64,000 nucleotides of DNA from Candidatus Gottesmanbacteria bacterium (GTDB taxonomy: Bacteria; Patescibacteriota; Microgenomatia; UBA10105; UBA927), in NCBI GenBank assembly GCA_903821745.1, contig CAIJMI010000004.1, positions 152,404 through 216,403 of the forward strand. Reading direction: 5' to 3'. Of the stretch, positions 1,113 through 40,356 are shown piece by piece. Numbering within the stretch: the stretch's first letter is position 1; each line of letters opens with the position of its first letter. A program made the translations under genes and the position numbers. The notes beneath the pieces were generated by a model that was not told where the DNA came from, ran no database searches, and worked only from the letters and a program-made list of their open reading frames with translations.

Positions 1113-1794
1113 TTTTATATCCGAAACCTCGGACTGTATGAATAAGCGGCTTCAAAGAGGGAAATGGTTTATCTATTTTTTCTCGTAAATAGTTAATATA
1201 TACTTCTACCGTATTTGGTAGGATATCATCTTCATAGCTCCAAATATTCTGAATTATTTCATCTTTATTTTTTACATCTCCTTTGTGTTTGAGTAAGAAC
1301 TCAAGGAGCGCATATTCTCTTTTTGAAAGTGAAATTTTTATCTTTACTCTCTTTACTTCTCGTTTTATTGTGTTCAGCGTTAGATTACCAAGTTTTAAAA
1401 CCCCATCAGTTTGTTGTTTTGGTCTTCTTGATAGCGCTCGTATACGAGCTACCAATTCCGCAAAAACGAATGGTTTAATGAGATAATCATCTGCTCCGGC
1501 ATTAAGACATTCAACTTTATCATCCGTTGCCCCTTTGGCGGTAAGAACGAGTATGGGAGTGTGTATATCTTTTTTTCGGAGATCTCTTAAAAGTTCCAAG
1601 CCTGGTATCTTTGGCAACATAAGATCAATGATTATAACGTCGTATGGTTCAGATGAGGCTAAATCAAATCCTTCTTCTCCATCGAAGGCAAGGTCAACCG
1701 ACCAGGATTCCAGTTCCAAACCGGTTTTGATGAACTGCGCTATTTTATGCTCGTCTTCCACAACGAGAATCTTCATATTATCTGTATTATACAA
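1096..1794 (-). CDS. OmpR-family response regulator (receiver plus winged-helix)
   Basis: Receiver motifs (DVIIIDLMLP, LTAKG) and a C-terminal winged-helix trans_reg_C domain (VRGFGYKI). Confidence 0.9.
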   Translation of the reverse strand: MYNTDNMKILVVEDEHKIAQFIKTGLELESWSVDLAFDGEEGFDLASSEPYDVIIIDLMLPKIPGLELLRDLRKKDIHTPILVLTAKGATDDKVECLNAGADDYLIKPFVFAELVARIRALSRRPKQQTDGVLKLGNLTLNTIKREVKRVKIKISLSKREYALLEFLLKHKGDVKNKDEIIQNIWSYEDDILPNTVEVYINYLREKIDKPFPSLKPLIHTVRGFGYKIDTHE

Positions 1795-1953
1795 AAGTAA
1801 ATCTTGGAAGGAGCTTAAAGAATTATGAAAAAAATCACTAGTCTAAATGGAGAGTAAATAGGTTCGAACTTCGTCCATTGCGTGGAGCAAGGTTTTTTAG
1901 CTTCAGTTTTTCCTCATACCACAAAGTATTTTCGAACTTGATATAATTCGTAT

Positions 1954-2508
1954 ATGGTCGGGCAAGTAATTTTTGAAGGGAAAACAAAACAAGATAAGCA
2001 GTATGTAATTCGTTATCCTCAAGAGGGCGACGCGCAGGCAATGTGCGATTACATTAATGAACTTTCTCAAGAGCACACATACATTCGTTTTCAAGGAGAA
2101 ACAGTTTCTTTAGAAGATGAAACAAAGTATTTACAAGAGCAGCTTGAGAAAATAAGAAAGAATAAAACAGTTCAACTCCTCGTTATTTGCGAAGGTAAAA
2201 TTATGGGAATTTCTGCCATTGATTTAAAAGACAAAACAGAAAGTCATGAAGGTGTTTTCGGTATCTCATTAGCCAAAGATATTCGAGGAGAAGGTATTGG
2301 AAAGATACTAATGAAATTAACCATCGAAGAAGCCGAAAAACACTTATCTGAACTTCGCCTTATCACACTTGGCGTGTTTGGAGATAACCAGCTTGCTTTT
2401 AAGATGTATGAAGACTTCGACTTTCAGGAATATGGAAGACTACCAGGAGGCTCACTACATGATGGTAATTATGTTGACCACGTATATATGTATAAGAAAA
2501 TTCGTTAA
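1954..2508 (+). CDS. GNAT family N-acetyltransferase
   Basis: Acetyl-CoA-binding motif region (IRGEGIGKILM), 184 aa. Confidence 0.7.
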   Translation: MVGQVIFEGKTKQDKQYVIRYPQEGDAQAMCDYINELSQEHTYIRFQGETVSLEDETKYLQEQLEKIRKNKTVQLLVICEGKIMGISAIDLKDKTESHEGVFGISLAKDIRGEGIGKILMKLTIEEAEKHLSELRLITLGVFGDNQLAFKMYEDFDFQEYGRLPGGSLHDGNYVDHVYMYKKIR

Positions 2509-2708
2509 TTAATGCTTGCAAGGAGCTTCTGTGTCTGTTGCATAACTACTTCAGGATAATCAACGCTTGAGATAATTTGCTGGGAGAAATCGTCCCATTG
2601 AGCGAGCAAGTGATATTTTAGAGCGTATTAACAATCTAAACCACTAATTAAACCATAAGCGTTTAAGCCTTCTTATCTAATTTTACTATAGTTTGGTATA
2701 CTAAATTC

Positions 2709-3296
2709 ATGCGCCGTAAACGACGTATATATGTATCGCACCATTTGCACAAATGGAAATATAAAAATATAACTCTTGCCACTTTTGGTATTCTTTTAGC
2801 AGTTGTTCTTTCTCAAATCGAAGCGTTTCATACATTTCTTATGCACATTGGAGGATTTGGTTATATAGGGGCATTTATTGCAGGGATGTTATTTGTATCA
2901 ACATTTACTGTAGCGACGAGCGCCCTCGTGTTATTAACCCTTGCTGAAACGTTATCACCAATTGAAATTGGGTTAATAGCCGGGCTTGGAGCAGTTGTTG
3001 GTGATTTAACTATTTTTCATTTTATAAAGGATAATTTAACTTCGGAAATAGAGCAGATATTTAATCATTTTGATAAGAAAAAACATCTCAAACATCTCTT
3101 TCATACAAAATATTTCAACTGGATGCTTCCTGTGTTTGGGGCAATTATTATTGCATCACCACTCCCTGATGAATTAGGGGTAAGTTTAATGGGATTATCT
3201 CAAATGAATACAACGCGATTTATTATTCTATCGTATATTCTTAACTCCTTGGGAATATTTGTTGTAGTATCAGCATCAATATTTATTAAACCATAA
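2709..3296 (+). CDS. Integral membrane protein (possibly DedA/YqaA-like)
   Basis: 4-5 hydrophobic helices; ends 4 nt before the P-type ATPase start. Confidence 0.45.
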   Translation: MRRKRRIYVSHHLHKWKYKNITLATFGILLAVVLSQIEAFHTFLMHIGGFGYIGAFIAGMLFVSTFTVATSALVLLTLAETLSPIEIGLIAGLGAVVGDLTIFHFIKDNLTSEIEQIFNHFDKKKHLKHLFHTKYFNWMLPVFGAIIIASPLPDELGVSLMGLSQMNTTRFIILSYILNSLGIFVVVSASIFIKP

Positions 3297-3301
3297 TATA
3301 T

Positions 3302-5743
3302 ATGTTTGAAGAGGAACAAGGGCTTTCTAAAAATGAAGTAATTCAAAGGCAACAGCTTGATGGTCTCAATGTACTACCCGAAAAAACACCTCCAAGTAAG
3401 TTTTCTATCTTTATTAATCAATTAAAAAGCCCGCTAGTCTATATTCTTCTGATTGCCTCGTTTATAACAATTGCGATAGGACATATCACTGACGCGATCA
3501 TTATTTTTATTGCAGTATTTATTAATACTGTGCTTGGATACATTCAAGAACAACGTGCTTCAAACGCGCTCCTTGCGCTGAAAAAGTATGTTACCCACAC
3601 AACGACCGTTATTCGGGAAGGAAAACGGATAAAGGTTCACACAACACATATTGTTCCCGGGGACGTTGTGGTGTTAGAACAAGGTGAAAATGTCCCAGCT
3701 GATGGAATACTTCTTTTTGCGAACCGACTATATATAGATGAATCCATTTTAACCGGTGAGAGTATTCCTGTAGGAAAGAGTAAAGATCAGACGGTATCTA
3801 TGGGTACTATTATTGCTTCAGGACAAGGAAGAATTCAGGTTGAAGCAATTGGAGGAAAGACGAAGATGGGTGCAATAGCCACACAGATTCAACAGGACGA
3901 GGAACAAACGCCTCTTCAACGGCAGTTGCAGAAGTTTAGTAAACAACTTGTTGTGGTTATAACTGTTCTTACAGCATTTGTTTTTTTCCTTGGTGTTTTT
4001 TATCAATTTAGTTTAACTGAAATATTTATTACCTCTGTTGCGCTTGCCGTATCAAGTATTCCCGAAGGGTTGTTAGTATCTCTTACGGTTGTACTTGCTA
4101 TTGGTATGCAAAAAATAGTCAAACATAGAGGGTTGGTACGGAAATTATCAGCTGCAGAGACACTCGGAGGAATCACTGTTATATGTGTTGATAAAACTGG
4201 TACGTTAACACAGGGAAAAATGGAAGTAACTGATCATATTGGTGACGTCAAAGAATTGGCACAGCAGGTGCTCCTTGCCAACGATTTAGATGATCCGATG
4301 GTTATAGCTGCATTTACCTGGGGAAGAACAATTATTCAGGATTTTATATCAGAGCATGCTCGACTTGACAGCATTCCATTTTCTCCAAAAGAGCGCTTCT
4401 TTATTAGTCTTCATGTATGGAACAAAAAAACAAACATGGTGTTTGTTAATGGTGCACCAGAGCAACTTCTTTCTTGGTCAACAGTTTCAGAAGAGGAGCA
4501 AAAAGAAATCAGTGCTGCTATCGAAGCACTTACAAAACAAGGAAAAAGACTTATCGGTTTTGCACGAAAAGAAGTAGATCATACGAAAAAAACGTTAGAG
4601 CATACCGATGCAAAGGAAAAGTTAACATGGGTAGGACTACTAGCGTTTTCAGACCCCGTGCGATTAGGGGTAAAAGAGGCGTTAGATGAAGCAAAAACTG
4701 CGGGTATAAGAACAATTGTTATAACAGGAGATTATCCAAAAACATCAGAATTTGTCCTTGCTGAACTCGGGATGCCGGTTCATAGTGATGAGGTTGTCAT
4801 AGGAGAACAACTTGAAAAAATGAATTCAGAAGAGTTGATAGACGCAGTTAAGAGCGCTCGATTATTTGCCCGAACTACCCCAGGCCAAAAACTGCTGATT
4901 GTCGAAGCGTTAAAAAAGAACGGGGAAATAGTCGCAATGATGGGTGATGGCGTTAATGATGCACCCGCGCTTCACAAAGCAGACATCGGTATTGTTGTCG
5001 GGGACGCAACTGATGTGGCAAAAGAATCAGCTGACCTTGTTCTTCTTGATTCAAATTTTTCAACAATAATCAGGGCTATAGAAGAGGGGAGATCGATGTT
5101 TGAGAATATACGAAAGATAATCCTATATCTTATGAGCGACGCCTTTGCAGAGATACTTGTAGTCGTCGGGAGTATTATATTATATTTACCTCTCCCTGTT
5201 ACTGCAGTACAGATTTTGTGGATTAATCTGGTTTCTGATGGTTTTCCGGATCTTTCTTTAACAGTTGACCCTAAACGGAAGGATATTATGAGGGAACACC
5301 CGAGAAATCCTCATGAGCGGTTGGTCAACAGGTGGATGATGATACTTATCGGAACGGTAAGTGTTGTTGCGGGCGTGCTAGCGTTAGGATCATTTGTTGT
5401 TTTATACAAAACATCAGGGGATATACTGCTTGCAAGGTCATTTACATTTATTGTTCTTGGTCTAAATTCTCTAGCGTATGTATTTTCAGTCAGAACGCTC
5501 ATGACACCTTTTTGGAAGAGCCGGCTTTTTGTTAACAAGTGGTTACTTGCAGCGGTGTGTGCCGGATTTGTTTTACAATGGATTCCATTTTCCACCCCTG
5601 TTCTCCGTCAATTTTTTGGATTAACCCAGATTCCCATTTCATACTGGATCATGGCAATAGCCTTTTCTGTAATCATGTTTATGATAATAGAAATGTTCAA
5701 GTTAGTGTATCGTTTTCGGAAATCAATAAAATTCTTAAATTAA
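3302..5743 (+). CDS. P2-type cation-transporting P-type ATPase (Ca2+/Mg2+-type)
   Basis: TGES actuator loop, PEGL motif in TM4, phosphorylation site DKTGTLT, hinge GDGVNDAPAL. 813 aa with about 10 TM segments. Confidence 0.9.
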   Translation: MFEEEQGLSKNEVIQRQQLDGLNVLPEKTPPSKFSIFINQLKSPLVYILLIASFITIAIGHITDAIIIFIAVFINTVLGYIQEQRASNALLALKKYVTHTTTVIREGKRIKVHTTHIVPGDVVVLEQGENVPADGILLFANRLYIDESILTGESIPVGKSKDQTVSMGTIIASGQGRIQVEAIGGKTKMGAIATQIQQDEEQTPLQRQLQKFSKQLVVVITVLTAFVFFLGVFYQFSLTEIFITSVALAVSSIPEGLLVSLTVVLAIGMQKIVKHRGLVRKLSAAETLGGITVICVDKTGTLTQGKMEVTDHIGDVKELAQQVLLANDLDDPMVIAAFTWGRTIIQDFISEHARLDSIPFSPKERFFISLHVWNKKTNMVFVNGAPEQLLSWSTVSEEEQKEISAAIEALTKQGKRLIGFARKEVDHTKKTLEHTDAKEKLTWVGLLAFSDPVRLGVKEALDEAKTAGIRTIVITGDYPKTSEFVLAELGMPVHSDEVVIGEQLEKMNSEELIDAVKSARLFARTTPGQKLLIVEALKKNGEIVAMMGDGVNDAPALHKADIGIVVGDATDVAKESADLVLLDSNFSTIIRAIEEGRSMFENIRKIILYLMSDAFAEILVVVGSIILYLPLPVTAVQILWINLVSDGFPDLSLTVDPKRKDIMREHPRNPHERLVNRWMMILIGTVSVVAGVLALGSFVVLYKTSGDILLARSFTFIVLGLNSLAYVFSVRTLMTPFWKSRLFVNKWLLAAVCAGFVLQWIPFSTPVLRQFFGLTQIPISYWIMAIAFSVIMFMIIEMFKLVYRFRKSIKFLN

Positions 5744-5945
5744 GCATAAGCAAATAGCTATTCTCAGAAGTAAGGAAGTAGATTCGAATTGCGTCACTGA
5801 AAATCAAAAAGATTTCCAGTGTAAACCATTGCGTGGAGCCGGAGTTTTTCGCTTCAAATTATCACAAATGAAGTAACCTCGAAAGGACGTTCGAACCCAA
5901 TGAAAAAAATTTCAATCTTCAGTTGTATTACTCATAGAAAGAGAG

Positions 5946-6326
5946 GTGAATTACATGAATAAAAAAACAATCATTGCATTAAGTATCGCATCTGTTGTTC
6001 TTGGAGGTATTTTTACTTTTCCAAAGATAGCAGAAGCATATAAAGGAAATCCTACAGTCAAAGGACCATATTACACAGAAGAACGTCATGAGGCTATGGA
6101 AAAAGCGTTTGAAACAAAAGATTATAACGCTTGGAAAAACCTTATGCAGGGAAAAGGTCGAGTAACTCAAGTTATCAATCAGGATAATTTTGCGAAATTT
6201 GCCCAAGCACACGAACTTGCTGAAGCAGGAAAACTGGAAGAAGCTGCTGCAATTCGAAAAGAATTAGGATTAGGTTTACATAATGGATCTGGTCAAGGAA
6301 TGGGAATGGGACGATGGAGTAAGTGA
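5946..6326 (+). CDS. Small secreted protein, unknown function
   Basis: N-terminal signal peptide (AEA-YKG) and a Gly-rich C-terminal tail. Likely true ATG at 5955 with an upstream GAGAGG. Confidence 0.5.
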   Translation: MNYMNKKTIIALSIASVVLGGIFTFPKIAEAYKGNPTVKGPYYTEERHEAMEKAFETKDYNAWKNLMQGKGRVTQVINQDNFAKFAQAHELAEAGKLEEAAAIRKELGLGLHNGSGQGMGMGRWSK

Positions 6327-6413
6327 CTTTACTTTATAGGTCACAAACGCTTCCCCGTCAATATGACGGGGTTTGGCGTAGGAAAACCCAGGGAAAGAAA
6401 TATGGAGCGGTAG

Positions 6414-6983
6414 TTGTATTACAATTGTGATATGCCGGGAACCAAGACACTATCAGATGAAGAACTGGTTATCCATATTCGGACAAAAGAAAAAGAACGG
6501 TTTACATATATTGTAGAGCGGTATAAAGACAAGCTGTTGCGATATGCTACATACTTAATTCATGATGAACAGAAAGCGATGGATGTTGTTCAAGACGCAT
6601 TCATTAAAGCGTATGAGAATCTCAACGGGTTTGATGTAAGAAAAAAGTTTTCGAGTTGGATATATCGCATTGTTCATAATGAAGCAATGAACAGTGTTAA
6701 AAAATACCATAAGGAAACGCCATTTCTTCCAAACGTGGATTTTCAAAGTGATGAAAATATAGAACATGATTTTACGAGAAAAGAAATTATTGAAAACGCA
6801 CAATCATGTCTTGATGGAATGCCCGTATTGTACAGTGAGCCTTTAACTTTGTATTATTTAGATGAAAAGTCATATGAAGAAATTAGCGATATATTACGGA
6901 TTCCCATGGGTACCGTTGCAACGAGGGTGAGTCGTGCAAAAAAACTCATGAAAGCACTATGTCAAAAATCAAAAAAGATATAA
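6414..6983 (+). CDS. ECF-subfamily sigma-70 factor
   Basis: Sigma region 2 (VQDAFIKAYENL, WIYRIVHNEAMN) and region 4 HTH (SYEEISDILRIPMGTVATRVSRA). Probable start at M6432. Confidence 0.85.
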   Translation: MYYNCDMPGTKTLSDEELVIHIRTKEKERFTYIVERYKDKLLRYATYLIHDEQKAMDVVQDAFIKAYENLNGFDVRKKFSSWIYRIVHNEAMNSVKKYHKETPFLPNVDFQSDENIEHDFTRKEIIENAQSCLDGMPVLYSEPLTLYYLDEKSYEEISDILRIPMGTVATRVSRAKKLMKALCQKSKKI

Positions 6984-7447
6984 CAAATGACGTTATGTCC
7001 CGTATTAAACGGGAACATATCACAATGAAACCCAGATGGTATTTTATCGTAGGATCGATTGCGATGGTGTTAGGAATCGTCGGATTAAGTATTGTCTCAA
7101 TATTTTTTGTTAATATTATTGTTTTTTCACTCCGAACGCATGGACCGATGGGGGCTGTTCGGTATCAGCAACTGCTCTCAAGTTTTCCTTGGTGGGCACC
7201 AATGTTAGTGGTTATTGGATTAGGATTTGGGATATGGATGCTGAAAAAATATGATTTTTCATATAGGAAGAATTTTCTGCTAGTTATACTAGGATTTATC
7301 GCTGCAATAATAATTTCAGGCATATTGATTGACTATCTTGGAATTAATACATTTTTATCTCATCAAGGTAAAATGAAGAGATTATATCAACGGATTCAAA
7401 ATCAAGATACGTTAAATATAAAAGGAGGTCGCTATCAGCAAAAATAA
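6959..7447 (+). CDS. Membrane protein, candidate anti-sigma factor
   Basis: Overlaps the sigma gene by 25 nt; 3-4 TM helices; position typical for an anti-sigma factor. Confidence 0.4.
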   Translation: MSKIKKDITNDVMSRIKREHITMKPRWYFIVGSIAMVLGIVGLSIVSIFFVNIIVFSLRTHGPMGAVRYQQLLSSFPWWAPMLVVIGLGFGIWMLKKYDFSYRKNFLLVILGFIAAIIISGILIDYLGINTFLSHQGKMKRLYQRIQNQDTLNIKGGRYQQK

Positions 7448-9204: not shown

Positions 9205-9455
9205 ATTATTCCAATGTAAAAGTATACGCTACGACAACATGTCCATACTGCACTATGGTTGCTGATTGGTTGAAAAGTAAAAATGTCACTTTTGATAAAG
9301 TGCTTGTTGATCAAGATCAACAAGCTGCAAATGAAATGATTCAAAAGACTGGTCAGATGGGGGTTCCAGTGATAGAAATTGGATATGCTGACAGAAAATC
9401 AGAATTTATTGTCGGATTTAACCAACCACAATTAGCATACATGCTGGGAGTATAA
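9201..9455 (+). CDS. Glutaredoxin-like protein (NrdH/YruB-like)
   Basis: CPYC active site near the N-terminus and a thioredoxin fold of the right size; ATGA overlap with arsR. Confidence 0.75.
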   Translation: MNYSNVKVYATTTCPYCTMVADWLKSKNVTFDKVLVDQDQQAANEMIQKTGQMGVPVIEIGYADRKSEFIVGFNQPQLAYMLGV

Positions 9456-9593
9456 TATTTATGAACCACTGCCTTTGAATTTAATCAGTTAAATGGTTAC
9501 GTTTAAAGATTTAGAAAATATTAGAATGGGTTAGAACGTTCTCTATAGGTGAGCCCGATATATCACTCAATAGTCACCTGATAGAATATAAAT

Positions 9594-10499: not shown

Positions 10500-10928
10500 C
10501 TAATGATATTTTTCTTTAAATTCGTCAAACCAATCAATGGGTGCCTGAGTCTCTGTTTCCCCATTATAATTAACTAGAATTTCTTCGTCTTTTTTAATAT
10601 TGGAGGTTGCTCGATAAATCATGGTTTTTGCTTGGAAGTCTTGTTCCCATGTAGCATTAGGAGTGAATGAATGGTTATATATGGAGCCATATCCTAAAAC
10701 CATGACACCACATCGAGTACTTGTCCATGGATATAAATAATAGGCAAAAATAGTGTGTTCAGAGTGTGTTCGTTCTTTGGGGGAAAGATAGACAACAGGA
10801 GAAGTTTCGATAATTTCTCCCTTTTTAAAATTTTTGGCTGCGAAGACTCCACGCCCTTTGTGTTCAGTGTTTTTTATGACAACTGATGGAGCGAAAATAA
10901 TTGGTAAATGATTAGAGCCAATGGACAT
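10500..10928 (-). CDS. SET-domain protein (putative lysine methyltransferase)
   Basis: GRGVFA...KGE, NHS..PN and EEILVNY signature motifs of the SET domain. Confidence 0.8.
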   Translation of the reverse strand: MSIGSNHLPIIFAPSVVIKNTEHKGRGVFAAKNFKKGEIIETSPVVYLSPKERTHSEHTIFAYYLYPWTSTRCGVMVLGYGSIYNHSFTPNATWEQDFQAKTMIYRATSNIKKDEEILVNYNGETETQAPIDWFDEFKEKYH

Positions 10929-11403
10929 AAGTACAACCTGTTGCTTGTTTCTTTTCTCTATCCCATCCTGCGGTTGAACATTTTTTCATTTTTTTGCCTG
11001 AAACCGTGGTATACAATACTAATTTTGCTCCGCATTCTGGACATTCTTCATCAAGAGGTTCTGTTGTTCCATTAATCCATTCGACATAGTCACATCCTAT
11101 TACCTGTTTTTTTGTTGCATCCCATCCACCGGTTGAACATTTTTTCATCTTTTTTCCGAATCGTGTCATCGTTAGAACAAGTGAAGCGCCGCATTTTGGA
11201 CATGTTTCATCTAACGTTTGTGGCTCAAAAGGAAGCCATAAAACAAAATCGCATCCATCGATTTTTTTTGTTTCAGCATTCCACATCCCCGCGGTGCAGC
11301 GGCGTAATTTTTTACCAGAGCTCGTGATAACAACTTCACCGAGCTTACTTCCACATTTTGGACAAATTTCTTGATTTTCATTTGAGACAGATGGTGTATT
11401 CAT
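10912..11403 (-). CDS. Triple topoisomerase-type C4 zinc-ribbon protein (YrdD-like)
   Basis: Three tandem repeats of about 50 aa, CP(K/E)CG...GKK...C..G.W...K...GC.YV.W, four Cys each (zf-C4_Topoisom-like). 17-nt overlap with the SET gene. Confidence 0.7.
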   Translation of the reverse strand: MNTPSVSNENQEICPKCGSKLGEVVITSSGKKLRRCTAGMWNAETKKIDGCDFVLWLPFEPQTLDETCPKCGASLVLTMTRFGKKMKKCSTGGWDATKKQVIGCDYVEWINGTTEPLDEECPECGAKLVLYTTVSGKKMKKCSTAGWDREKKQATGCTYVHWL

Positions 11404-11496: not shown

Positions 11497-13344
11497 ATGA
11501 AAATAAATGTTTCCATTATTGCACTGTTAGCGATCTTACTTGTTTTTCAATACGGAAAATTTTTTCCTGAACCTATAATTCATCCGTATCTTCTTGCAAT
11601 TGGAATCCTTGCAACGATTCCAGTATTTTTAAACGCAGTAAAATCAATGCTGCAAAAAAAAATATCTGTTGACCTTCTCGCATCAATTACACTAGTGGTC
11701 TCAATGATCAAAGGAGAATGGGTATCTGTAGGGTTCATTAATCTTATGATTACATCAGCCAGAATTTTTGGAACATATACGGAAGGAAAAGCAAAATCTG
11801 CCATTAAGGGATTGTTAAAACTTCGTCCTGACAATGTACGAATTAAACAAAAAGACGGCATTGTTGTTAGGCACATTAATGAGGTCACCATTGGAGATAT
11901 CGTTGTCGTCGAATCAGGGGAACGTATCCCTATTGATGGGAGTGTTATCCAAGGAGAGGGATCGATTAATCAGTCATCTCTCACAGGTGAATCACTTCCT
12001 ATTGAAAAACATGAAGGGGATACATTGTTAAGTTCAACACTTGTTGAATCAGGAATATTTCTTATCCGTACTGAAAAAATTGGAAAAGATACTACATTCG
12101 AAAAAATAATTGCACTCGTCGAACAGGCACAATCTGGAAAAGGTTTAATACAAACTATGGTAAATACGTTTTCCTCATGGTATATCCTTCTCACATTACT
12201 TGGCTCTTTGTCTCTCTATTTTATTTCTCATGATACTAATCTCGTCCTGAGTGTGCTTTTAGTAACCTGCGCTGATGATATTGCTGTTGCGGTTCCTATG
12301 GCATTTTATGCAGCAATTGCATATGCCGCGAAGCGGGGCATCATTATCAAGGGGGGACAATATTTAGAAGGATTAACACGGGTAAAAATGGTAGTTGTGG
12401 ATAAAACCGGTACATTAACGCGAGGCAATATTGCAGTTAGCAAAGTATATCCGTTCGGGCAATATTCAGAACAACAAGTTGTAAGTTATGCGGCTATCGC
12501 AGCGAGCATGTCACAGCACCCGATTTCGAAAGCTATTCTTTTGTATGCTCAAAAGAAACATATTGAAATTAAACAGCCTGAAATATTTGATGAGCATCCT
12601 GGGAAGGGGGTAATGGCAGTATTTCACCATCAACATATAATAGTTGGAAATAAAAAATTGTTGCTAGATAAGCATATAACTATTTCCTATGAGCAAATGC
12701 AACAATACAATAAAAGTAGTAATGCAGGATATTCTGTGTTATTTGTCGGTTATGATGGAACATGTATTGGAAATATTGTGTTAAGCGATGAGGTTCGTCC
12801 AGAAATTCGGACAACGATTCAATCTTTGAAACATTTTGGTATTCGAAATATTGTTATGTTAACAGGGGATAATGAAAAAGTTGCAAGCCATGTGATGGAA
12901 CAAACAGGAATTACTGCGTATCATGCGAATTTATTACCGGAAGATAAAGTTGCATTTATAAAATCTCATAAAGGGGGACGTCATCTTGTCGCAATGGTTG
13001 GGGATGGTGTAAATGATGCAGCTGCTCTTGCCGCCTCTGATATCGGCATTGCAATGGGAACAATCGGAACTGATGCAGCCATCGAATCTTCAGACATTGC
13101 ACTTATGCATGATAATCTACAAAAAATTCCAGAGGTAATCGCAATTGGTAGACACGTTGTAAAGATTGCTCATCAAAATTTTATTATTTGGGGGGTAGTA
13201 AATTGTATTGGTTTAGTTCTCGTATTTACAAGAGTTATTGGTCCAGCAGAGGCAGCTGCGTTTAATTTTGTGACGGACTTCTTTCCACTGATGAATTCTA
13301 TGCGACTTTTCCGTCGACAGTCTTTTGATCGTGTGATAGGATAA
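11497..13344 (+). CDS. P-type ATPase, minimal P1B-like architecture, specificity unclear
   Basis: TGES actuator, DKTGTLT, GDGVNDAAAL; six TM core. Lacks an N-terminal metal-binding domain. The TM motif reads CADD where CPC is expected. Confidence 0.8.
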   Translation: MKINVSIIALLAILLVFQYGKFFPEPIIHPYLLAIGILATIPVFLNAVKSMLQKKISVDLLASITLVVSMIKGEWVSVGFINLMITSARIFGTYTEGKAKSAIKGLLKLRPDNVRIKQKDGIVVRHINEVTIGDIVVVESGERIPIDGSVIQGEGSINQSSLTGESLPIEKHEGDTLLSSTLVESGIFLIRTEKIGKDTTFEKIIALVEQAQSGKGLIQTMVNTFSSWYILLTLLGSLSLYFISHDTNLVLSVLLVTCADDIAVAVPMAFYAAIAYAAKRGIIIKGGQYLEGLTRVKMVVVDKTGTLTRGNIAVSKVYPFGQYSEQQVVSYAAIAASMSQHPISKAILLYAQKKHIEIKQPEIFDEHPGKGVMAVFHHQHIIVGNKKLLLDKHITISYEQMQQYNKSSNAGYSVLFVGYDGTCIGNIVLSDEVRPEIRTTIQSLKHFGIRNIVMLTGDNEKVASHVMEQTGITAYHANLLPEDKVAFIKSHKGGRHLVAMVGDGVNDAAALAASDIGIAMGTIGTDAAIESSDIALMHDNLQKIPEVIAIGRHVVKIAHQNFIIWGVVNCIGLVLVFTRVIGPAEAAAFNFVTDFFPLMNSMRLFRRQSFDRVIG

Positions 13345-19372: not shown

Positions 19373-21469
19373 TTAGGGTGCAGGAGTTGGAGTTGGTGTT
19401 GGTAACGCTTGACATCGTCCACCTCTAGGTTCAGTTCCTCGTATAAAATATTCTGGTCTACCAAAATAACAGGGGATGGACACTATGGTTTCACTCCGTT
19501 CAGGAATTTCGTCCTGTTTATCTTTAAGAATTTCAACCATAATATCATGCCAGATCGGCGCTGCACCAGTGATACCGGAGGAAAGGTATGGATTCATTGG
19601 TGTATTGTCATTATTTCCTACCCAAACAGTTGTAACGTACGAAGGAGTATATCCAATGGTCCAATTATCGCGCTTGTCATTGGTTGTACCGGTTTTTACG
19701 GACACTGTTTTTCCTGGAATAACGAGTTCTGAATTCGGTCCAAACGCGTTCGTTCTCGCAACATTATCGCTGAGAATATTTCCCATAATCCAAGAAACAT
19801 CTGGTTTTATTGCCTGTACCCCGAGTTGTGGGGAATTTCGTTCATACACTTTGCCGGTGTAGTCGGTTACTTCCAATATTGGAATGAGATCTTGCCGTAT
19901 GCCGTTATTTGCAAGTGTTCCGAATACTTTTGCCATATCAAGCATCGTGACATCTGCTCCGCCTAGAGTGATGGATAAACCGTAATTGGATGCATCGGCC
20001 CAGGATTCAATTCCCATTGCTTTTCCTTTCGAAAAAATTGCCGTAACGCCGAGTTTTGCTGCAAGTTTTACAGCAGGAATATTATAAGAATTTGCGAGTG
20101 CATAGCGAAGCGGTGTCGCCCCATGAAATTTTCCATCATAGTTAACAGGCATATATGCAGGGTTATTTGGAATGGTATATGAAACAGGTGAGTCATCAAG
20201 AATAGAAGCTGTGGTAAATCCGTTTTCAAGTGCAAGTGCATAGGTAACAACTTTAATGGAGGATCCAGGTTGACGAAGTGCTGTGGTGACATTAACATTG
20301 CCGTCATGTTCATTGTCAAAGTAGTTTTTGCTTCCAACCATTGCAAGGATTTCACCATTTTTAGGATTGGTAACAAGAGCTGCACCATTCCCAACTTGTA
20401 AATTAGAAAGAGCATCAACATTTGAAGTGACGATATCTTGGACTTTTTCTTGAAGCGTCACATCGAGAGATGTGATAACACGAAGACCTCCATGTTCCAC
20501 ACGTCTTGCACCATACCGTTTTTCCAATATGTCCTTAATATACATAACGAAATGCGGAGCACGTATAGAAACGTTTGGTGTAGCAAAATGAATGGTTTCT
20601 GTATATGCTACCTGCGCTTCATCTTTGGTAATATATCCATCTTCCACCATGCGTCGAAGTACTTCTGCCTGGCGGTCAAATGCCTTTTGAGGGTTTGCTC
20701 CAAAAGGAGAATAATCTGTTGGCGCGGCAGGAAGACCGGCAAGTAAGGCAATTTCACCAAGTGATAATTCAGACAGAGGTTTATTAAAGTATGTTTGACT
20801 TGCTGAATCTACGCCCCAAGCTGTACCCCCATATGGGACTTGGTTTAAATACATTTCGAGGATTTCATCTTTTGAATACATACGTTCAGCCCAGTACGCC
20901 AAAATAATTTCTTTAATTTTTCGAGTTATGGAGATTTCCGGCGAAAGGAGTGCTGATTTAATTAGTTGTTGGGTAATCGTGGAACCGCCTTGTATGTGAT
21001 GATTGAATAGTGTTTCTGTTGCAGCTCGGCTTATTCCTTTTAGCGAAAAACCATTGTGTTTATAAAAATCTCTATCTTCGATAGCGATGGTTGCTTGTCG
21101 AAGCCGTTTTGGGATTTGTGCGAGAGGAATGGGTGTTCGGTTTTGGTCTGCATAGATTTCATAGAGAAGCGCCCCATTTCTGTCGAGAATTTTTGTTGAC
21201 ACCTCGAGATCTCTTCTGGAAAGCATGGTTGGATTTGGAAGGCTTCGAAGCCATTGATAAGTGATATACGGAAGAAAAACACAAACAATCGTTATCAGCA
21301 TCCCTAAAAAAAAAGATTTCAAGCTAAAACTTGAAATATCCATTCGGGCACGCGTTAAAATACGGGCAATAGGTGTTTTCATGATGCAAAAAAAATTAGG
21401 AAACAAAGAACAAAGAGAAGAAATAAAGAGTTTAAAAGGATTTTTTTCGGGAGCGTGCAAACGGGCCAT
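19373..21469 (-). CDS. Class A penicillin-binding protein (transglycosylase plus transpeptidase)
   Basis: GT51 motifs (EDRDFYKHNG, GGSTITQQL), transpeptidase SxxK/SxN/KTGT (KTGTTND), C-terminal PTPTPTPAP tail. True start probably near 21382 (MKTPIARIL). Confidence 0.85.
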   Translation of the reverse strand: MARLHAPEKNPFKLFISSLCSLFPNFFCIMKTPIARILTRARMDISSFSLKSFFLGMLITIVCVFLPYITYQWLRSLPNPTMLSRRDLEVSTKILDRNGALLYEIYADQNRTPIPLAQIPKRLRQATIAIEDRDFYKHNGFSLKGISRAATETLFNHHIQGGSTITQQLIKSALLSPEISITRKIKEIILAYWAERMYSKDEILEMYLNQVPYGGTAWGVDSASQTYFNKPLSELSLGEIALLAGLPAAPTDYSPFGANPQKAFDRQAEVLRRMVEDGYITKDEAQVAYTETIHFATPNVSIRAPHFVMYIKDILEKRYGARRVEHGGLRVITSLDVTLQEKVQDIVTSNVDALSNLQVGNGAALVTNPKNGEILAMVGSKNYFDNEHDGNVNVTTALRQPGSSIKVVTYALALENGFTTASILDDSPVSYTIPNNPAYMPVNYDGKFHGATPLRYALANSYNIPAVKLAAKLGVTAIFSKGKAMGIESWADASNYGLSITLGGADVTMLDMAKVFGTLANNGIRQDLIPILEVTDYTGKVYERNSPQLGVQAIKPDVSWIMGNILSDNVARTNAFGPNSELVIPGKTVSVKTGTTNDKRDNWTIGYTPSYVTTVWVGNNDNTPMNPYLSSGITGAAPIWHDIMVEILKDKQDEIPERSETIVSIPCYFGRPEYFIRGTEPRGGRCQALPTPTPTPAP

Positions 21470-21534: not shown

Positions 21535-23928
21535 TTATTTTACGAAAACTGCTTTATTATCTGCGTGCTGACAGTCAATGCAATAGGTCGACATGGCATC
21601 TTTCAGTATTTGTTTTTCTTTTACCTCCGTGTTATCTGTAACTCCAGGAGCAGCCAAATCGCCGGTTGTCTTATCAAGAACAACAGCTTGTTTTAAATTT
21701 TCTCGTTCTGTTGGAACAGTACCTTTGATGAAATATTCAAATCGTGTTGCACAGCCTTTATCATCGCCATCTGAGTTTGGAGGAAGAAGCCCGGACGTTG
21801 TACAAATTTGTGCGCCAACAATCCCCTCTGGTTGCTTTGGCCATATATCTGATTTTCCAAGAAGTGCGCGTCGCATGAGTATATTCCAAATGGGCGCTGC
21901 TCCCGTGACCCCTGAAACAAGATAACGATTCATTGGCGAATTATCATTATTTCCAACCCACGTTGCAACGAGCATATTTGGCGTATACCCAATAGTCCAG
22001 TTGTCCCGCAAGTCATCAGTTGTTCCTGTTTTAACGGATACCGTATGTCCGGGGATAATAAGAGAGGAACTTGGGCCGAATGCATCTTGTCTGGCATTGT
22101 TATCAAGAAGAATATGGGAAATCAGAAATGTTGTTTCGGGAGATAAAACACGCGTTCCTTTTAACAAAAGTTGTGATGGGATGTCTTTGTCTAGATTTGG
22201 ATCTGTATATTCATCCAAGATTTTTCCATTTCGGTCTAACACTTTGCGGATAGCAACGAGATCTTTTTTGATGCCGCCGTTTGCAAAGACACCAAATGCT
22301 GTTGCCATATCGACCATTCGAACTTCGCCACCACCAAGAGTGAGGGACAGTCCATAATTATCCGGATTTTGTATCGTACTCAATCCAAATGCACTAGCTG
22401 ATGCAACCATATCCCGAACGGTATTGATATAGAGCATTTTAACAGCAGGAATATTATAGGAATTTCCAAGTGCGAATCGAAGTTGTACAGGTCCATGGAA
22501 TTTCCCGTCATAATTTTTGGGACAATACGCAGCCTGATTGGTAACCCCAAAACAAGTGGGAATATCAAGAAACATTGTTGCAGGAGTGACGAGTTTTCGT
22601 TCGATGCCGATGGCATAATTTATAGGTTTGATTGATGAGCCAGGTTGACGGAGCGCGGTGGTGACGTTAAATCCTCCTGAAGGCGTAGCAAAATAATCAA
22701 CCGATCCCACCATAGAAAGAATTTCTCCTGTAGCAGGATTGGTGATCAGTGCCGCACCATTGGTGACGTGCGTTGTTGCAAGGTCAACGACTTCTGCGGC
22801 AACGGTTGCTTGCGCATATTCCTGGAGATCCGCATCAAGTGTGGTGTAGACTTTTAATCCACCTCGTTCCACCATTTGTTCCCCATATTTTTCAACGAGT
22901 TGTTCTTTTACATACATAACAAAATGTGGGGCTTTAATATTGGTGGGTTTCGTAAAAACAAGTGGTGTGTTTACCGCTGACTCTTGTTGGTCTTTAGAAA
23001 TATATCCATCTTCCATCATTCGTCGAAGAACCTCTTTTTGCCGCTGGATTGCAAGATCAGGATTGTTCCCAAATGGAGAATACAATGTTGGTGCTTGGGG
23101 AAGTCCTGCAAGCAGAGCCGCTTCAGCAAGGGTCAGGTCTTTAACTGATTTCCCAAAATATTTTTCAGAAGCGGTACTTATACCCCATGCGGTCCCTCCA
23201 TAGGGAACTTGATTAAGATACATTTCAAGAATTTTGTCCTTGGAGTACGCGGTTTCTACCCAATAAGATAAAATAATCTCTTTTATTTTTCTGGTGATGG
23301 TCCGTTGCGGAGTTAACAGTGCTGATTTAACCAGTTGTTGGGTAATCGTAGATCCTCCTTGGAGTTGTTTTCCAAGAATAGTAGCTGAAATAGCACGAAG
23401 CATTCCACCAATGGGGTTAATGGCACCATGGTGATAAAAATCTTTGTCTTCAATGGAAATGGTTGCTTCCTGAACGTATTTTGGAATGTCAGAAAGCGGT
23501 ACTAGGGAACGGTTTTGATCAGTAAATATGTCAAATAATAATATGCCATTTCGGTCATAAATTTTGGTTGCAAGAGGAACGTCATACACGCCAAGTTTAG
23601 TTGGTGATGGGAGGTCTTTTAAGATTGTAAAATATCCGACCAAAATAAATGTGAGCGGAAGGAGCCAAAATGCATATGCACGATGGCACCAAAGAGTCCG
23701 GATAAATTTTTTAATCTGTGTCTTCATTGTCTTTCTATTATAATAGAAGAGACAAAAAAATGTGTATGGATACAGCAATGTGTGTTTCCTCTTGGGCGTT
23801 TCTTCCTGATAAACAGGAAAAACAGACCTATCTTGTTTCAGAATTTCAGTCTGAATTTTTTTCTTTTGTCTATGGCGCATCCTTAAACTATGGATATATT
23901 GCTGCAAAGGTCGCTGCAGATACAACAA
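21535..23928 (-). CDS. Class A penicillin-binding protein, second paralog
   Basis: EDKDFYHHG, GGSTITQQL, KTGTTDD; true start probably near 23727 (MKTQIKKF). Confidence 0.85.
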   Translation of the reverse strand: MLYLQRPLQQYIHSLRMRHRQKKKIQTEILKQDRSVFPVYQEETPKRKHTLLYPYTFFCLFYYNRKTMKTQIKKFIRTLWCHRAYAFWLLPLTFILVGYFTILKDLPSPTKLGVYDVPLATKIYDRNGILLFDIFTDQNRSLVPLSDIPKYVQEATISIEDKDFYHHGAINPIGGMLRAISATILGKQLQGGSTITQQLVKSALLTPQRTITRKIKEIILSYWVETAYSKDKILEMYLNQVPYGGTAWGISTASEKYFGKSVKDLTLAEAALLAGLPQAPTLYSPFGNNPDLAIQRQKEVLRRMMEDGYISKDQQESAVNTPLVFTKPTNIKAPHFVMYVKEQLVEKYGEQMVERGGLKVYTTLDADLQEYAQATVAAEVVDLATTHVTNGAALITNPATGEILSMVGSVDYFATPSGGFNVTTALRQPGSSIKPINYAIGIERKLVTPATMFLDIPTCFGVTNQAAYCPKNYDGKFHGPVQLRFALGNSYNIPAVKMLYINTVRDMVASASAFGLSTIQNPDNYGLSLTLGGGEVRMVDMATAFGVFANGGIKKDLVAIRKVLDRNGKILDEYTDPNLDKDIPSQLLLKGTRVLSPETTFLISHILLDNNARQDAFGPSSSLIIPGHTVSVKTGTTDDLRDNWTIGYTPNMLVATWVGNNDNSPMNRYLVSGVTGAAPIWNILMRRALLGKSDIWPKQPEGIVGAQICTTSGLLPPNSDGDDKGCATRFEYFIKGTVPTERENLKQAVVLDKTTGDLAAPGVTDNTEVKEKQILKDAMSTYCIDCQHADNKAVFVK

Positions 23929-31965: not shown

Positions 31966-32538
31966 ATGCCAGTGTATACACGAACGGGTGATGATGGAAC
32001 AACTGCACTGTTTGGAGGAAAACGCATCTTAAAATGTGAAGAACTCGTTGATGTGTATGGTTCCATTGATGAACTCAATAGCTGGATCGGCGTTCTTCTT
32101 GCAACAGACAAGAATCAAAGGGACAAGCAATTGTTTCTTGCAATACAACAAGATTTGTTTTTGATCGGCAGTGTACTTGCAGGATGGAAGGGTGATATTT
32201 CTCCACTTGGTAAGCGAATTTTAGAAATGGAACAGCATATCGATGCAATTGAAACAAAAGTGCCGAAAATCACAAATTTTATTCTTCCCGGTGGATCAAA
32301 GAGTGCATCGTATGTTCATGTAGTAAGAAGTATTACTCGACGTGTTGAACGGCAAATGGTTGCATTATTTGCAAAGGAAAAGAGTAGTACAGTACCTGAT
32401 AAAAATAATCAACGAAAAATGATTACGTATATCAATCGTTTGTCTGACTTGTTATTTATGATGGCAAGAGGTATAAATAAGACAGTTGGTATCAAAGAAG
32501 TTGTATGGAAAGGGATATCAACAAAGAGTAAAGAGTAG
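31966..32538 (+). CDS. PduO-type ATP:cob(I)alamin adenosyltransferase
   Basis: MPVYTRTGDDGTT signature N-terminus; 4 nt after the nrdJ stop. Confidence 0.85.
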   Translation: MPVYTRTGDDGTTALFGGKRILKCEELVDVYGSIDELNSWIGVLLATDKNQRDKQLFLAIQQDLFLIGSVLAGWKGDISPLGKRILEMEQHIDAIETKVPKITNFILPGGSKSASYVHVVRSITRRVERQMVALFAKEKSSTVPDKNNQRKMITYINRLSDLLFMMARGINKTVGIKEVVWKGISTKSKE

Positions 32539-32614
32539 AGGAAGGTTGTGTAACTCAATCACTGTGCCGCAACGGTAAAGTCCGGAACTCTTCTTTACCT
32601 ATCCCGAGCAGGAG
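32537..32614 (+). promoter_or_regulatory. Conserved riboswitch-like 5' leader, copy 1 (candidate cobalamin-responsive element)
   Basis: Duplicated about 1 kb downstream. Contains CACUG, a UGCCG-CAA-CGGUA hairpin, AAGUCCGGAA, and an ACUC tract complementary to the GGAG Shine-Dalgarno. Confidence 0.35.
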
Positions 32615-33061: not shown

Positions 33062-33582
33062 TACTTATGGAGATGATTACATTTACACTGATTGGTATTC
33101 TTTCAAGACTTGTGCCGCATATTCCAAACATGACTGCAGTGGGAGGTGCATCACTGTTTATGGGTGCAAAATTTGGTGTAAAGAAAAGCATGATCGTACT
33201 TTTTTTAACTATGCTGGCGACTGATAGTGTGAAAGGACTGCATTCTGTGATGTGGGCAACGTACGGATCATTGGTTCTTGCTATTTTGATCGGTAAATAT
33301 ATGGCATCAAAAAAAAATGCAGGGTGGATTATCGGAGGAACGCTGTTGTCTTCTATTTTGTTTTTTATCATTACAAATTTTGCTGTATGGCTTGCCCCGA
33401 ATTTTATGTACGCAAAAACCCTTTCAGGACTTGTGGACTGCTACATGATGGCAGTTCCATTTTTCAAAAATTCTCTCGCTGGCGATTTGATGTATTCAAG
33501 TATTTTTTTTGGTGGATACGCATTCGTTGCATCCATTAAACAAAAGATGATGATGTGTCAGGTCGGCCATAAAAACATATAA
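33058..33582 (+). CDS. Small polytopic membrane protein, ECF S-component/BtuM-like candidate vitamin transporter
   Basis: 174 aa with about six TM helices; 4-nt overlap with the DUF4430 gene. Confidence 0.4.
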   Translation: MILMEMITFTLIGILSRLVPHIPNMTAVGGASLFMGAKFGVKKSMIVLFLTMLATDSVKGLHSVMWATYGSLVLAILIGKYMASKKNAGWIIGGTLLSSILFFIITNFAVWLAPNFMYAKTLSGLVDCYMMAVPFFKNSLAGDLMYSSIFFGGYAFVASIKQKMMMCQVGHKNI

Positions 33583-33586
33583 AGGA

Positions 33587-33666
33587 AGAGGAAGGTTGTG
33601 TAACTCAACCACTGTGCCGCAACGGTAAAGTCCGATACTCCCCTTTATATTTTCCCGAGCAGGAGG
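33587..33666 (+). promoter_or_regulatory. Conserved riboswitch-like 5' leader, copy 2
   Basis: Shares a 22-nt block (1 mismatch), an identical 25-nt block and an identical CCCGAGCAGGAG block with copy 1. GGAGG lies 7 nt before ATG 33673. Confidence 0.35.
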
Positions 33667-40284: not shown

Positions 40285-40356
40285 GCGCCCGTAGCTCAGC
40301 GGTAGAGCGCATGTCTTATAAACATGAGGTACTTGGATCGTCACCAAGCGGGCGCA
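40285..40356 (+). tRNA. tRNA-Ile (anticodon UAU), 72 nt, no encoded CCA
   Basis: Manual cloverleaf: acceptor GCGCCCG/CGGGCGC, D-arm GCTC-AGCGGTA-GAGC, anticodon stem CATGT/ACATG, loop CTTATAA, T-arm CTTGG-ATCGTCA-CCAAG, discriminator A. Confidence 0.8.

Follow-up and report, generated by a model that had tools for sequence, protein, structure and literature searches.

What is the element that fills the gap between the divergent genes for an OmpR-type response regulator (RR, minus strand) and a GNAT acetyltransferase (plus strand) in a 64,000-nucleotide stretch of a Candidatus Gottesmanbacteria contig (the whole of which is called the window below), and does it act on either gene? An earlier note on this DNA had described it as one of two copies of a dispersed composite, made of palindromes, a hairpin with a T-run, and a Shine-Dalgarno-led mini open reading frame (ORF) whose product begins MKKI. 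Comparison with related genomes places this element, copy A, as an intact copy in a lineage-specific family of short intergenic repeats (~80-170 bp) of the Microgenomates, part of the Candidate Phyla Radiation (CPR), and its conserved core is an antisense micro-ORF under peptide-level constraint. It is this coding nature of the opposite strand that the earlier note overlooked. To judge from the surrounding promoters and from relatives, copy A is neither a leader of the GNAT gene nor an operator of the adjacent two-component system.

A family of dispersed intergenic repeats

The window lies in a 234-kb metagenome contig (ENA ERZ27313374, k141_417974), and the names given to homologues of its proteins point to the Microgenomates. 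Re-reading the window sequence recovered all the strings on which the earlier description was based. The 14-mer CCATTGCGTGGAGC has its sole exact copies in the window at 1875-1888 and 5826-5839; GTTCGAAC lies at 1862-1869 and 5889-5896, TTCGAA at 1931-1936 and 5783-5788, the Shine-Dalgarno sequence GGAAGGAG at 1806-1813 and the six T's at 1893-1898. The regions of copy A and of the second copy (copy B) share a collinear 38-nt block with 79% identity (family D14). Taken by itself, the window does not provide evidence for a repeat beyond chance: it contains 31 maximal exact repeats of at least 14 nt versus ~18 in shuffled sequences, TTCGAA is not enriched (20 occurrences versus 30 expected), and the two occurrences of GTTCGAAC, versus 0.6 expected, were reached by 14 of 100 shuffles.

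Relatives were sampled as ~1 Mb of DNA from 114 loci (labelled L001 and so on), spanning 10 kb to either side of relatives of the window's P-type ATPase, small secreted protein and RR. With copy A as the sole query, nhmmer recovered intergenic matches in other Microgenomates contigs (E = 2e-6 to 4e-4); copy B alone also recovered copies, and a profile of the first matches detected nine copies in L084 (5.6-14.1 kb), two to three in L087 and others in L004, L022, L040 and L020. Later profile searches yielded copies in L109, L115 and L116-119, a peptide profile added four in L004, three in L039 and one or more in L053, and a copy in L070 and one further L004 copy were found by eye. The total comes to ~35 copies in ~15 contexts beyond the window, with the exact 14-mer recurring in L084 at 12712. 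Thus, the proposal of a dispersed intergenic repeat family is borne out by many copies in related Microgenomates genomes, and the suggested search for further copies was productive, although the core conserved in them differs from the composite that had been described. Because copies exist outside the window, a chance similarity of two intergenic regions is excluded.

Copy number differs widely between genomes: there are three copies in 72 kb of the window genome, nine within 9 kb in L084, six to seven in 10.6 kb in L004, three in 8.8 kb in L039, and one or two each in 7-20 kb in L109, L115 and L116. None was found in L088, L110, L112 and L113, despite the presence of the same VTT-ATPase, small-protein/extracytoplasmic function (ECF) sigma factor or RR-histidine kinase (HK) modules. 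Likewise, copies are absent from the flanks of the VTT-ATPase pair in L088, from the region ahead of the small-protein gene in L109 and L110, and from that ahead of the orthologous RR operons of L112 and L113, which have the same RR-HK-...-Metallophos organization. The element is thus not tied to its flanking genes, and multiple dispersed copies with presence/absence differences among relatives are also a mark of miniature inverted-repeat transposable elements (MITEs). All copies of one locus have the same orientation, and they avoid housekeeping flanks (DnaG and RpoD in L084), lying instead at the edges of modules whose arrangement differs from genome to genome; the small-protein gene of L084 is 97% identical to that of the window. 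No empty site was found at the strain level, the 11 contigs with an identical GNAT or RR protein all sharing the same neighbors.

Searches farther afield were largely negative. The strict 38-nt block is absent from 80 ATPase loci of metagenome contigs, and the later profiles detected copies in a minority of loci. A scan of genome contigs with TGCGTGGAGC-N5-TTTT-N2-GCTTC returned two matches, in Acidobacteriota and Trichococcus, which is about the chance number and comes with no further similarity, and the 19 matches of the core pattern in viral contigs all lie in unrelated coding DNA, none with the GGAGC extension. The Rfam scan that had been asked for, run on the whole window at gathering thresholds and on 1700-6100 at E <= 10, gave nothing beyond noise in 1700-6100 and no relevant family; gathering thresholds were passed in the window only by one tRNA and two AdoCbl-II riboswitches, all elsewhere.

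An antisense micro-ORF in the conserved core

In the aligned copies the variable positions of the left module recur at every third base. Read on the minus strand, this module in copy A is an ORF of 11 codons from its ATG (Table 1), or 15 from an in-frame TTG at 1890, which would extend it to LLHA-MDEVRTYLLSI (TTG CTC CAC GCA ahead of the ATG). The family consensus peptide is (L)LRG-MDDVRTYYATI, followed by a stop. Complete peptides, all ending at a stop, include MDDVRIFYATI, MDDVRTFYTTS and MDDVRTWYTRLNS from L084 (7848, 9542 and 10743), MDDVRTYFLSQ from L087 (9179), LLRGVQEIRTYLLASYQPQFALI from L004 (1460), MEDIRTWYAQI from L040 and MESIRTFYARI from L039, and the L022 copy reads ..LNEIRTFF... 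The stop falls at codon 12 even in distant lineages, as seen in the endings LSI (copy A), ATI (L084), AQI (L040) and ARI (L039). Across copies, the same residue is specified by alternative codons (Arg by CGA or AGA, Leu by CTC or TTG, Thr by ACC, ACT or ACA), and the residues themselves alternate between Tyr, Phe and Trp, between Asp, Glu, Asn and Gln, and between Val and Ile. The two TTCGAA/GTTCGAAC palindromes noted earlier are present, as codons of the micro-ORF and as an inverted, truncated copy of them.

A coding test, the most important control given that every rival account is non-coding, was limited to the 15 copies found by DNA profile alone, because the use of copies found through their peptide would be circular; a 19-copy set was also run. 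Among the 15 copies, the micro-ORF frame scored 2.97 BLOSUM62 per site with zero stops, as against at most 1.82 per site and 1-15 stops in the other five frames, and no column shuffle out of 2000 scored as high. Identity between the nucleotides of the copies is 0.78, 0.71 and 0.53 for the first, second and third codon positions, the third being the most variable. The plus-strand frame that shares the wobble positions of the micro-ORF has a stop directly upstream in most copies and internal stops in others, and the conserved part of the element has its left edge exactly at the end of the micro-ORF, which is convergent with the neighboring gene in most copies. Given the codon-like substitutions, the outcome of the frame test and the position of this left edge, we conclude that the conserved core probably is, or recently was, translated.

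The predicted peptide (MDEVRTYLLSI in copy A, MDDVRTYYATI in the consensus) has 11-15 polar and aromatic residues with no hydrophobic span. A profile of three motif units (48 residues) searched against 5.8 billion proteins retrieved only two short hypothetical ORFs, themselves copies of the repeat, and so neither a longer parent protein nor a target gene beginning MDDVRT..; the longer open frames had no match in Pfam.

The coding signal could alternatively be a by-product of structure or target pairing in a non-coding RNA, such as a small RNA, a 3'-untranslated region (UTR) element or an antisense RNA. In this regard, the minus strand folds better than shuffled sequences (z = -2.2 in copy A and -2.9 in copy B), a 3-4 bp hairpin over the start codon shows two-sided changes, few in number, between the L084 and L004 groups, and one position holds hairpins that differ in length, a trait of many RNA families. 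On the other side, the type-2 consensus folds weakly on both strands (-1.3 and -3.3 kcal/mol, with almost no covariation), the folding signal comes largely from the inverted arm and the inserted hairpin, and no Rfam family matches. Moreover, a structured RNA would explain neither the position of the stop nor the conservative replacements (Y/F/W, D/E/N, V/I), and no gene starting MDDVRT.. was found that could serve as its target. We consider such an RNA an improbable account of the family.

Some further identifications were tried and discarded: a tRNA T-arm or att-fragment (GGTTCGAA) has no complementary stem, spacings are unfit for a sigma-54 or ECF promoter inside the core and for a tyrosine-recombinase C-terminus (LLGH..T..Y), and the TnpB N-terminus gave no match.

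Arms, subfamilies and breakpoints

To the right of the start codon on the plus strand lies a variable segment that differs by subfamily. Type 1, to which copies A and B belong, has a weak GGAGC..GCTTC stem with a T-run; type 2, represented by a third window copy (copy C), L084 and L004, has TTTAGA..TCTAAA and a well-conserved ~60-nt block. In two L004 copies the segment is a strong bidirectional terminator-like hairpin, and in L039 it is a 10-bp stem. The right end of type 1, GGAC[GA][TA]TCGAAC[CT], is the inverted form of the first micro-ORF codons minus one codon, and hence the second TTCGAA of copy A (1931-1936) is part of an imperfect inverted repeat. An inverted-repeat finder called arms in L084 (12696-12704 / 12779-12787, 9 nt, 100%) and L022 (14 nt, 79%); by eye, the arms of copy A are AGGTTCGAA / TTCGAACTT (8/9) and those of copy B are TTCGAA plus CGTC/GACG.

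Copy A is intact. Copy B is split right after the ATG by an insertion, which leaves the body of its micro-ORF apart from, and out of frame with, its start codon, and from 5826 onward it is orthologous to L087. Copy C has lost GTTCGAAC; it retains the TTTAGA..TCTAAA hairpin (2617-2640) and the conserved block (2642-2676), and is 84% identical to L084 7858-7929 over 73 nt. The central 60-nt block of copy C is better conserved than its micro-ORF.

Breakpoints of homology, like nested insertions, are concentrated at the edges of the element and at the start-codon junction. Homology of the window with L084 and L088 starts at 5899/5900, the edge of the element; for L087 it begins at the CCAT junction, 5826. 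L084 and L086 diverge at this junction as well: to the right of GGAGC their identity is 99.95%, and to its left they are unrelated, though an assembly break at the repeat may be an alternative cause of this divergence. The site before the small-protein gene holds a type 1 element in the window and L087 and a type 2 element in L084, with flanking genes that are ~90% identical (91% between the window and L084). The start-codon junction holds extra, inserted hairpins in copy B, in L020 and in two of the L039 copies.

These insertions occupy an identical junction in four copies from three lineages (window 5796-5826, L039 ~5600-5640 and ~7230-7270, L020 ~9440-9470). The two L039 inserts are alike (GACTCACTTCG..GGACT..CG), and this resemblance suggests that a second, even smaller repeat may target the start-codon junction.

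Such a distribution raises the alternative of a site-specific recombination site, comparable to the attC sites of integrons, that delimits exchangeable modules, with a crossover at the CCAT/start-codon junction. As in integron attC arrays lacking an integrase (CALIN), an imperfectly palindromic site follows almost every accessory gene, and the sites are co-oriented, similar within a lineage and variable at the center: co-oriented copies lie between nearly every accessory gene in L084 (5.6-14.1 kb) and L004 (0.2-8.4 kb), their left edge typically 4-20 nt past the stop of the preceding gene. The VTT-ATPase and small-protein/ECF/anti-sigma modules are flanked by copies in different genomes, the mosaic breakpoints and insertions share one junction, and GNAT, methyltransferase and small unknown genes are typical cassette cargo. 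Unlike attC sites, however, the window copies lack a RYYYAAC / GTTRRRY pair: every AAC motif in 1855-1945 and 5775-5905 belongs to TTCGAAC. One L004 copy (4278) shows TTCTAAC ... GTTAGGT. Nor was an integron integrase or other integrase-type recombinase seen among the called genes beside the arrays; the gene lists around them contain no Phage_integrase-type gene, with the arrays extending past the DNA examined. Furthermore, the copy B insertion lacks flanking duplicated sites, the genes have their own promoters, and a recombination site would leave the coding constraint, that is, a selected ORF within the site, unexplained. We regard this alternative as quite unlikely.

Promoters and neighboring genes

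The -10 box of the RR gene, TGTATAAT (1791-1786, minus strand), lies nine nt ahead of the ATG, and RR orthologues are alike in this respect. On the other side, a perfect extended -10 box outside the repeat precedes the GNAT gene (Table 1). Copy A therefore seems to sit between two divergent, essentially leaderless promoters, in the 5' UTR of neither gene; in particular, since the GNAT -10 lies between the element and the ATG, the element would be upstream of the GNAT promoter and outside its 5' UTR. The same extended -10 layout occurs after the L084 copy at 10727 and before VTT orthologues without the element, and many window genes have TGnTAnAnT 5-8 nt ahead of the start codon.

These observations have a direct bearing on the proposal that the SD-led MKKI mini-ORF is a leader peptide which, together with the hairpin and T-run, forms an attenuator controlling GNAT. 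In its favor, the strings exist as described and ATGAAAAAAAT occurs three times in the window versus 0.8 expected. A leader attenuator, however, consists of a short ORF and alternative hairpins that share the strand of the regulated gene and lie in its 5' UTR, and here the -10 boxes of GNAT and RR intervene, the GNAT promoter being 3' of both the MKKI ORF and the hairpin. The MKKI ORF and its Shine-Dalgarno sequence are confined to this locus and absent from all other copies; the ORF overlaps the 3' end of the minus-strand micro-ORF, and we judge it to be probably incidental. The hairpin of copy A is weak (-7.2 kcal/mol, z = -0.9) and not conserved (z = +0.2 for the equivalent stretch of copy B), a consensus scan called neither a terminator nor a promoter at it, and there is no plus-strand gene upstream of copy A for it to terminate. 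Finally, the ATGAAAAAAAT-type segment that the copies had been thought to share is, in copy B, the -35-like part of a conserved promoter box that is also present in relatives without the repeat. With copies outside the window speaking against the companion idea of chance, the attenuator-or-chance account is exceedingly improbable.

The box in question, TGAAA(A/G)AAA-N13-GTTGTATTAC, has two matches in the window versus 0.15 expected, the second of which precedes the ECF sigma gene. It is kept before the small-protein gene in L084, L087, L088, L109, L110 and L115, whether the repeat is present or not, and it is probably an autoregulated ECF promoter. Between the small-protein and ECF sigma genes, a GC-rich hairpin (CCCCGTC-aatat-GACGGGG) followed by TTTGG at 6353-6371 is a possible partial terminator within the operon.

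Another alternative is that the element is a host cis-regulatory module of a stress regulon, in which a dimeric regulator, either the adjacent OmpR-type protein or a partner of the ECF sigma factor, binds two GGTTCGAACC-like palindromes, so that the copies would resemble each other as a common operator. The three window copies all lie within 5 kb of the two-component system and ECF operon, and the remaining 57 kb has none; each unit contains the 10-bp palindrome GGTTCGAACC twice; and the flanking genes are of the envelope/stress type (P-type ATPase, DedA/VTT, ECF sigma, deacetylase). Against this, orthologues of the same genes in relatives lack the element, and in particular the regions of 36-61 nt upstream of the orthologous RR-HK operons in L112 and L113 contain no copy, which tells against the OmpR-family sites proposed earlier. 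The spacing to promoters varies from ~10 to more than 100 nt, and the L084 copy at 9527, flanked by two convergent genes, has no promoter that it could regulate. Direct repeats with a 10-11 bp period, the form taken by OmpR-family sites, are not seen here, the TTCGAA sites being 60-100 nt apart; codon-like substitutions, including CGA/AGA, would also be unexpected in an operator. We thus give a regulatory module of this kind a low probability. The DNA ahead of the RR-HK operon also varies in other respects: in L112, a block inserted before the orthologous operon (3323-6565) contains a ParB/N6-methyltransferase gene and a large serine recombinase.

Table 1. Copies of the repeat, their parts and neighboring features in the window
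Feature	Position	Strand	Remarks
RR and HK genes	RR start 1776	-	OmpR-type response regulator with histidine kinase; divergent from GNAT
MKKI mini-ORF	1825-1857	+	10 codons; with GGAAGGAG at 1806-1813
Copy A, micro-ORF	1843-1878	-	ATG GAC GAA GTT CGA ACC TAT TTA CTC TCC ATT TAG = MDEVRTYLLSI, stop
Copy A, left arm AGGTTCGAACTTCGTCC	1860-1876	-	holds GTTCGAAC (1862-1869), antisense of Val-Arg-Thr codons (GTT CGA AC)
Copy A, 14-mer CCATTGCGTGGAGC	1875-1888	-	micro-ORF initiation region (..G CTC CAC GCA ATG G = L-H-A-M)
Copy A, central variable segment	1884-1904		weak stem GGAGC/GCTTC around T-run 1893-1898; z = -1.1
Copy A, right arm AAAGTATTTTCGAACTT	1923-1939	+	degenerate, inverted, truncated copy of micro-ORF start
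Extended -10 TGATATAAT	1939-1956 (box 1939-1947)	+	GNAT flank outside repeat; six nt, then GNAT ATG at 1954
GNAT acetyltransferase gene	1954-2508	+	ATG at 1954
Copy C	2594-2690		decayed type 2, between GNAT and VTT; head HLLAQWDDFSQQII on minus strand
DedA/VTT-like membrane protein gene	2709-3296		downstream of GNAT
P-type cation ATPase gene	3302-5743		downstream of VTT
Copy B, micro-ORF body	5775-5795	-	..DAIRIYF..; apart from start codon, out of frame with it
Copy B, insertion	5796-5826		31 nt with own hairpin (CACTGAAAATC/GATTTCCAGTG), right after ATG; z = -3.6
Copy B, head (..LHAM) and right half	5826-5898		14-mer 5826-5839, GGAGC..GCTTC 5835-5855, right arm AAAGGACGTTCGAACCC 5882-5898
Promoter-like box TGAAA(A/G)AAA-N13-GTTGTATTAC	5901-5931	+	copy B flank outside repeat; small-protein/ECF-sigma operon; again at 6392-6422
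Small secreted protein gene	5955-6326		downstream of ATPase
ECF sigma factor gene	6432-6983		followed by presumed anti-sigma factor

Relation to known repeats and a proposed mode of spread

CPR genomes are very small, and they have few described repeats and almost no experimentally defined regulatory elements. A literature search retrieved no description of such repeats in CPR. Small palindromic intergenic repeats are already known, and a few families among them, such as MIRU of mycobacteria and RPE of Rickettsia, are short dispersed repeats whose sequence serves as codons. In MIRU the frames have the orientation of the flanking genes, with whose stop and start codons they overlap, and RPEs are in-frame insertions inside genes. 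In contrast, the frame described here is free-standing, has 11-15 codons and is mostly antisense or convergent to its neighbors; for such a frame with amino acid conservation across divergent CPR lineages we could not find a published description.

In size (80-170 bp), intergenic location and a distribution in which lineages rich in copies have close relatives with few or none, the family resembles MITEs, Correia/NEMIS, ERIC/IRU, RUP and REP/REPIN repeats. It also shares with MITE- or REPIN-type repeats internal hairpins, nested insertions, subfamilies with exchangeable modules, the lack of an encoded enzyme and, apparently, an inverted similarity of the termini. It differs from them in that its terminal inverted repeats are only 7-14 nt and partly owed to the palindromic TTCGAA, in that no target-site duplication, parent insertion sequence or REP-associated tyrosine transposase (RAYT) was found for it in the DNA examined, and in the amino-acid-level constraint on its core. 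A further parallel is offered by the type I toxin-antitoxin loci Ibs/Sib ('QUAD') and Ldr ('LDR') of E. coli, intergenic repeats that were first noticed as DNA repeats and contain a tiny ORF masked by RNA pairing. Like these, the element is an intergenic DNA repeat encoding a very small ORF. The Ibs and Ldr peptides, however, are membrane toxins, hydrophobic and 18-35 residues long, and are accompanied by a dedicated antisense RNA; the micro-ORF peptide is shorter (11-15 residues) and polar/aromatic with no antitoxin RNA evident, and thus does not conform to a type I toxin, for which a hydrophobic ORF of at least ~18 residues and an antisense RNA would be expected.

The integron-like cassette site, the shared operator and the structured non-coding RNA each explain some features, and none explains the codon-level conservation. 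The interpretation we favor, at about an even chance of being right, is that copy A belongs to a lineage-specific, non-autonomous repeat family with a selected micro-ORF. In this view, transposition in trans or recombination between copies would carry a MITE- or REPIN-like unit from one intergenic region to another, or swap it between them, and the copies would later decay where they sit, copies B and C being likely decayed examples. Active copies may need the micro-ORF or its translation. The micro-ORF would probably be translated from an antisense transcript, where pairing of the inverted arm with codons 2-6 could mask initiation.

Several observations weigh against this interpretation. No autonomous partner, such as a transposase or recombinase with matching ends, was found in the DNA examined or adjoining any copy, and no target-site duplication could be recognized, since seven complete copies have no flanking direct repeat of at least 3 nt, AT-rich flanks masking any 2-nt duplications. 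The inverted arms are short, and those of window copies A and B were too short for the inverted-repeat finder. The window genome contains few copies (three in 72 kb), and some copies occur at orthologous positions across lineages, namely downstream of the ATPase (window, L070 and L004) and of the anti-sigma gene (L084 and L116), where they are mostly decayed and seem to be inherited vertically. Peptide-level selection is itself unexpected for a purely selfish non-coding repeat. The micro-ORF has no Shine-Dalgarno sequence and no obvious -10 box at a leaderless distance, and part of the copy set was ascertained through the peptide pattern, although the subset found by DNA alone agrees.

With regard to potential enzymes, REP/REPIN systems have an associated RAYT gene and hundreds of copies per genome; no Y1_Tnp domain (RAYT) occurs among the called genes of the loci examined. 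The nearest candidate mobile-element enzyme is encoded in L001 at 2356-3610 (~4.4-5.7 kb to the left of the window start): a 373-residue product with HTH_8 and a weak rve_3 (integrase-core) match, whose gene lies beside a tRNA gene and has ends that do not match the repeat.

A bolder version of the non-autonomous repeat with a selected micro-ORF, which we think unlikely, is that a genuinely translated cis-acting element of 11-15 codons has long been kept in a CPR lineage as a switch or as part of a new recombination system. As a switch, the nascent peptide or the act of translation could open the stem formed with the inverted arm and thereby alter antisense transcription or processing at the borders of accessory modules; as part of a recombination system, the micro-ORF might belong to a machinery that shuffles accessory-gene modules. 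Either variant, if true, would define a class of repeats with a micro-protein as the unit of selection. Irrespective of this, the conservation of an 11-codon frame at the amino acid level in a multi-copy repeat is unusual and supplies a concrete candidate for a micro-protein or a translated switch. The family marks junctions of accessory modules that are rearranged among relatives (the P-type ATPase and DedA-like genes, acetyl- and methyltransferases, the ECF sigma operon), and may therefore drive, or else trace, the plasticity of genomes in this group.

Other features of the window

A -10-like box (often TGnTATAAT or TATACT) situated 5-8 nt before the start codon, without a Shine-Dalgarno sequence, is found in many genes, for example at 1939-1956, 2694-2711, 10028, 16515, 25459, 27125, 35723, 55488, 57697, 59909 and 61350, and the VTT version of it is kept in relatives. 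A leaderless layout thus seems to be common in the host organism, which matters for the annotation of start codons and for judging claims of upstream 'leaders'.

The tRNA detected by Rfam lies at 40285-40356, and the two AdoCbl-II (cobalamin) riboswitch aptamers, at 32528-32598 and 33569-33648, are 1050 nt apart and 92% identical over 61 nt. Two large tandem paralogous genes on the minus strand (19373-21469 and 21535-23928) contain repeated segments ~2370 nt apart (D1, D3 and D7). An 81-nt direct repeat with 78% identity (10918-10998 and 11077-11157) lies in a minus-strand gene whose product has zinc-ribbon-like matches.

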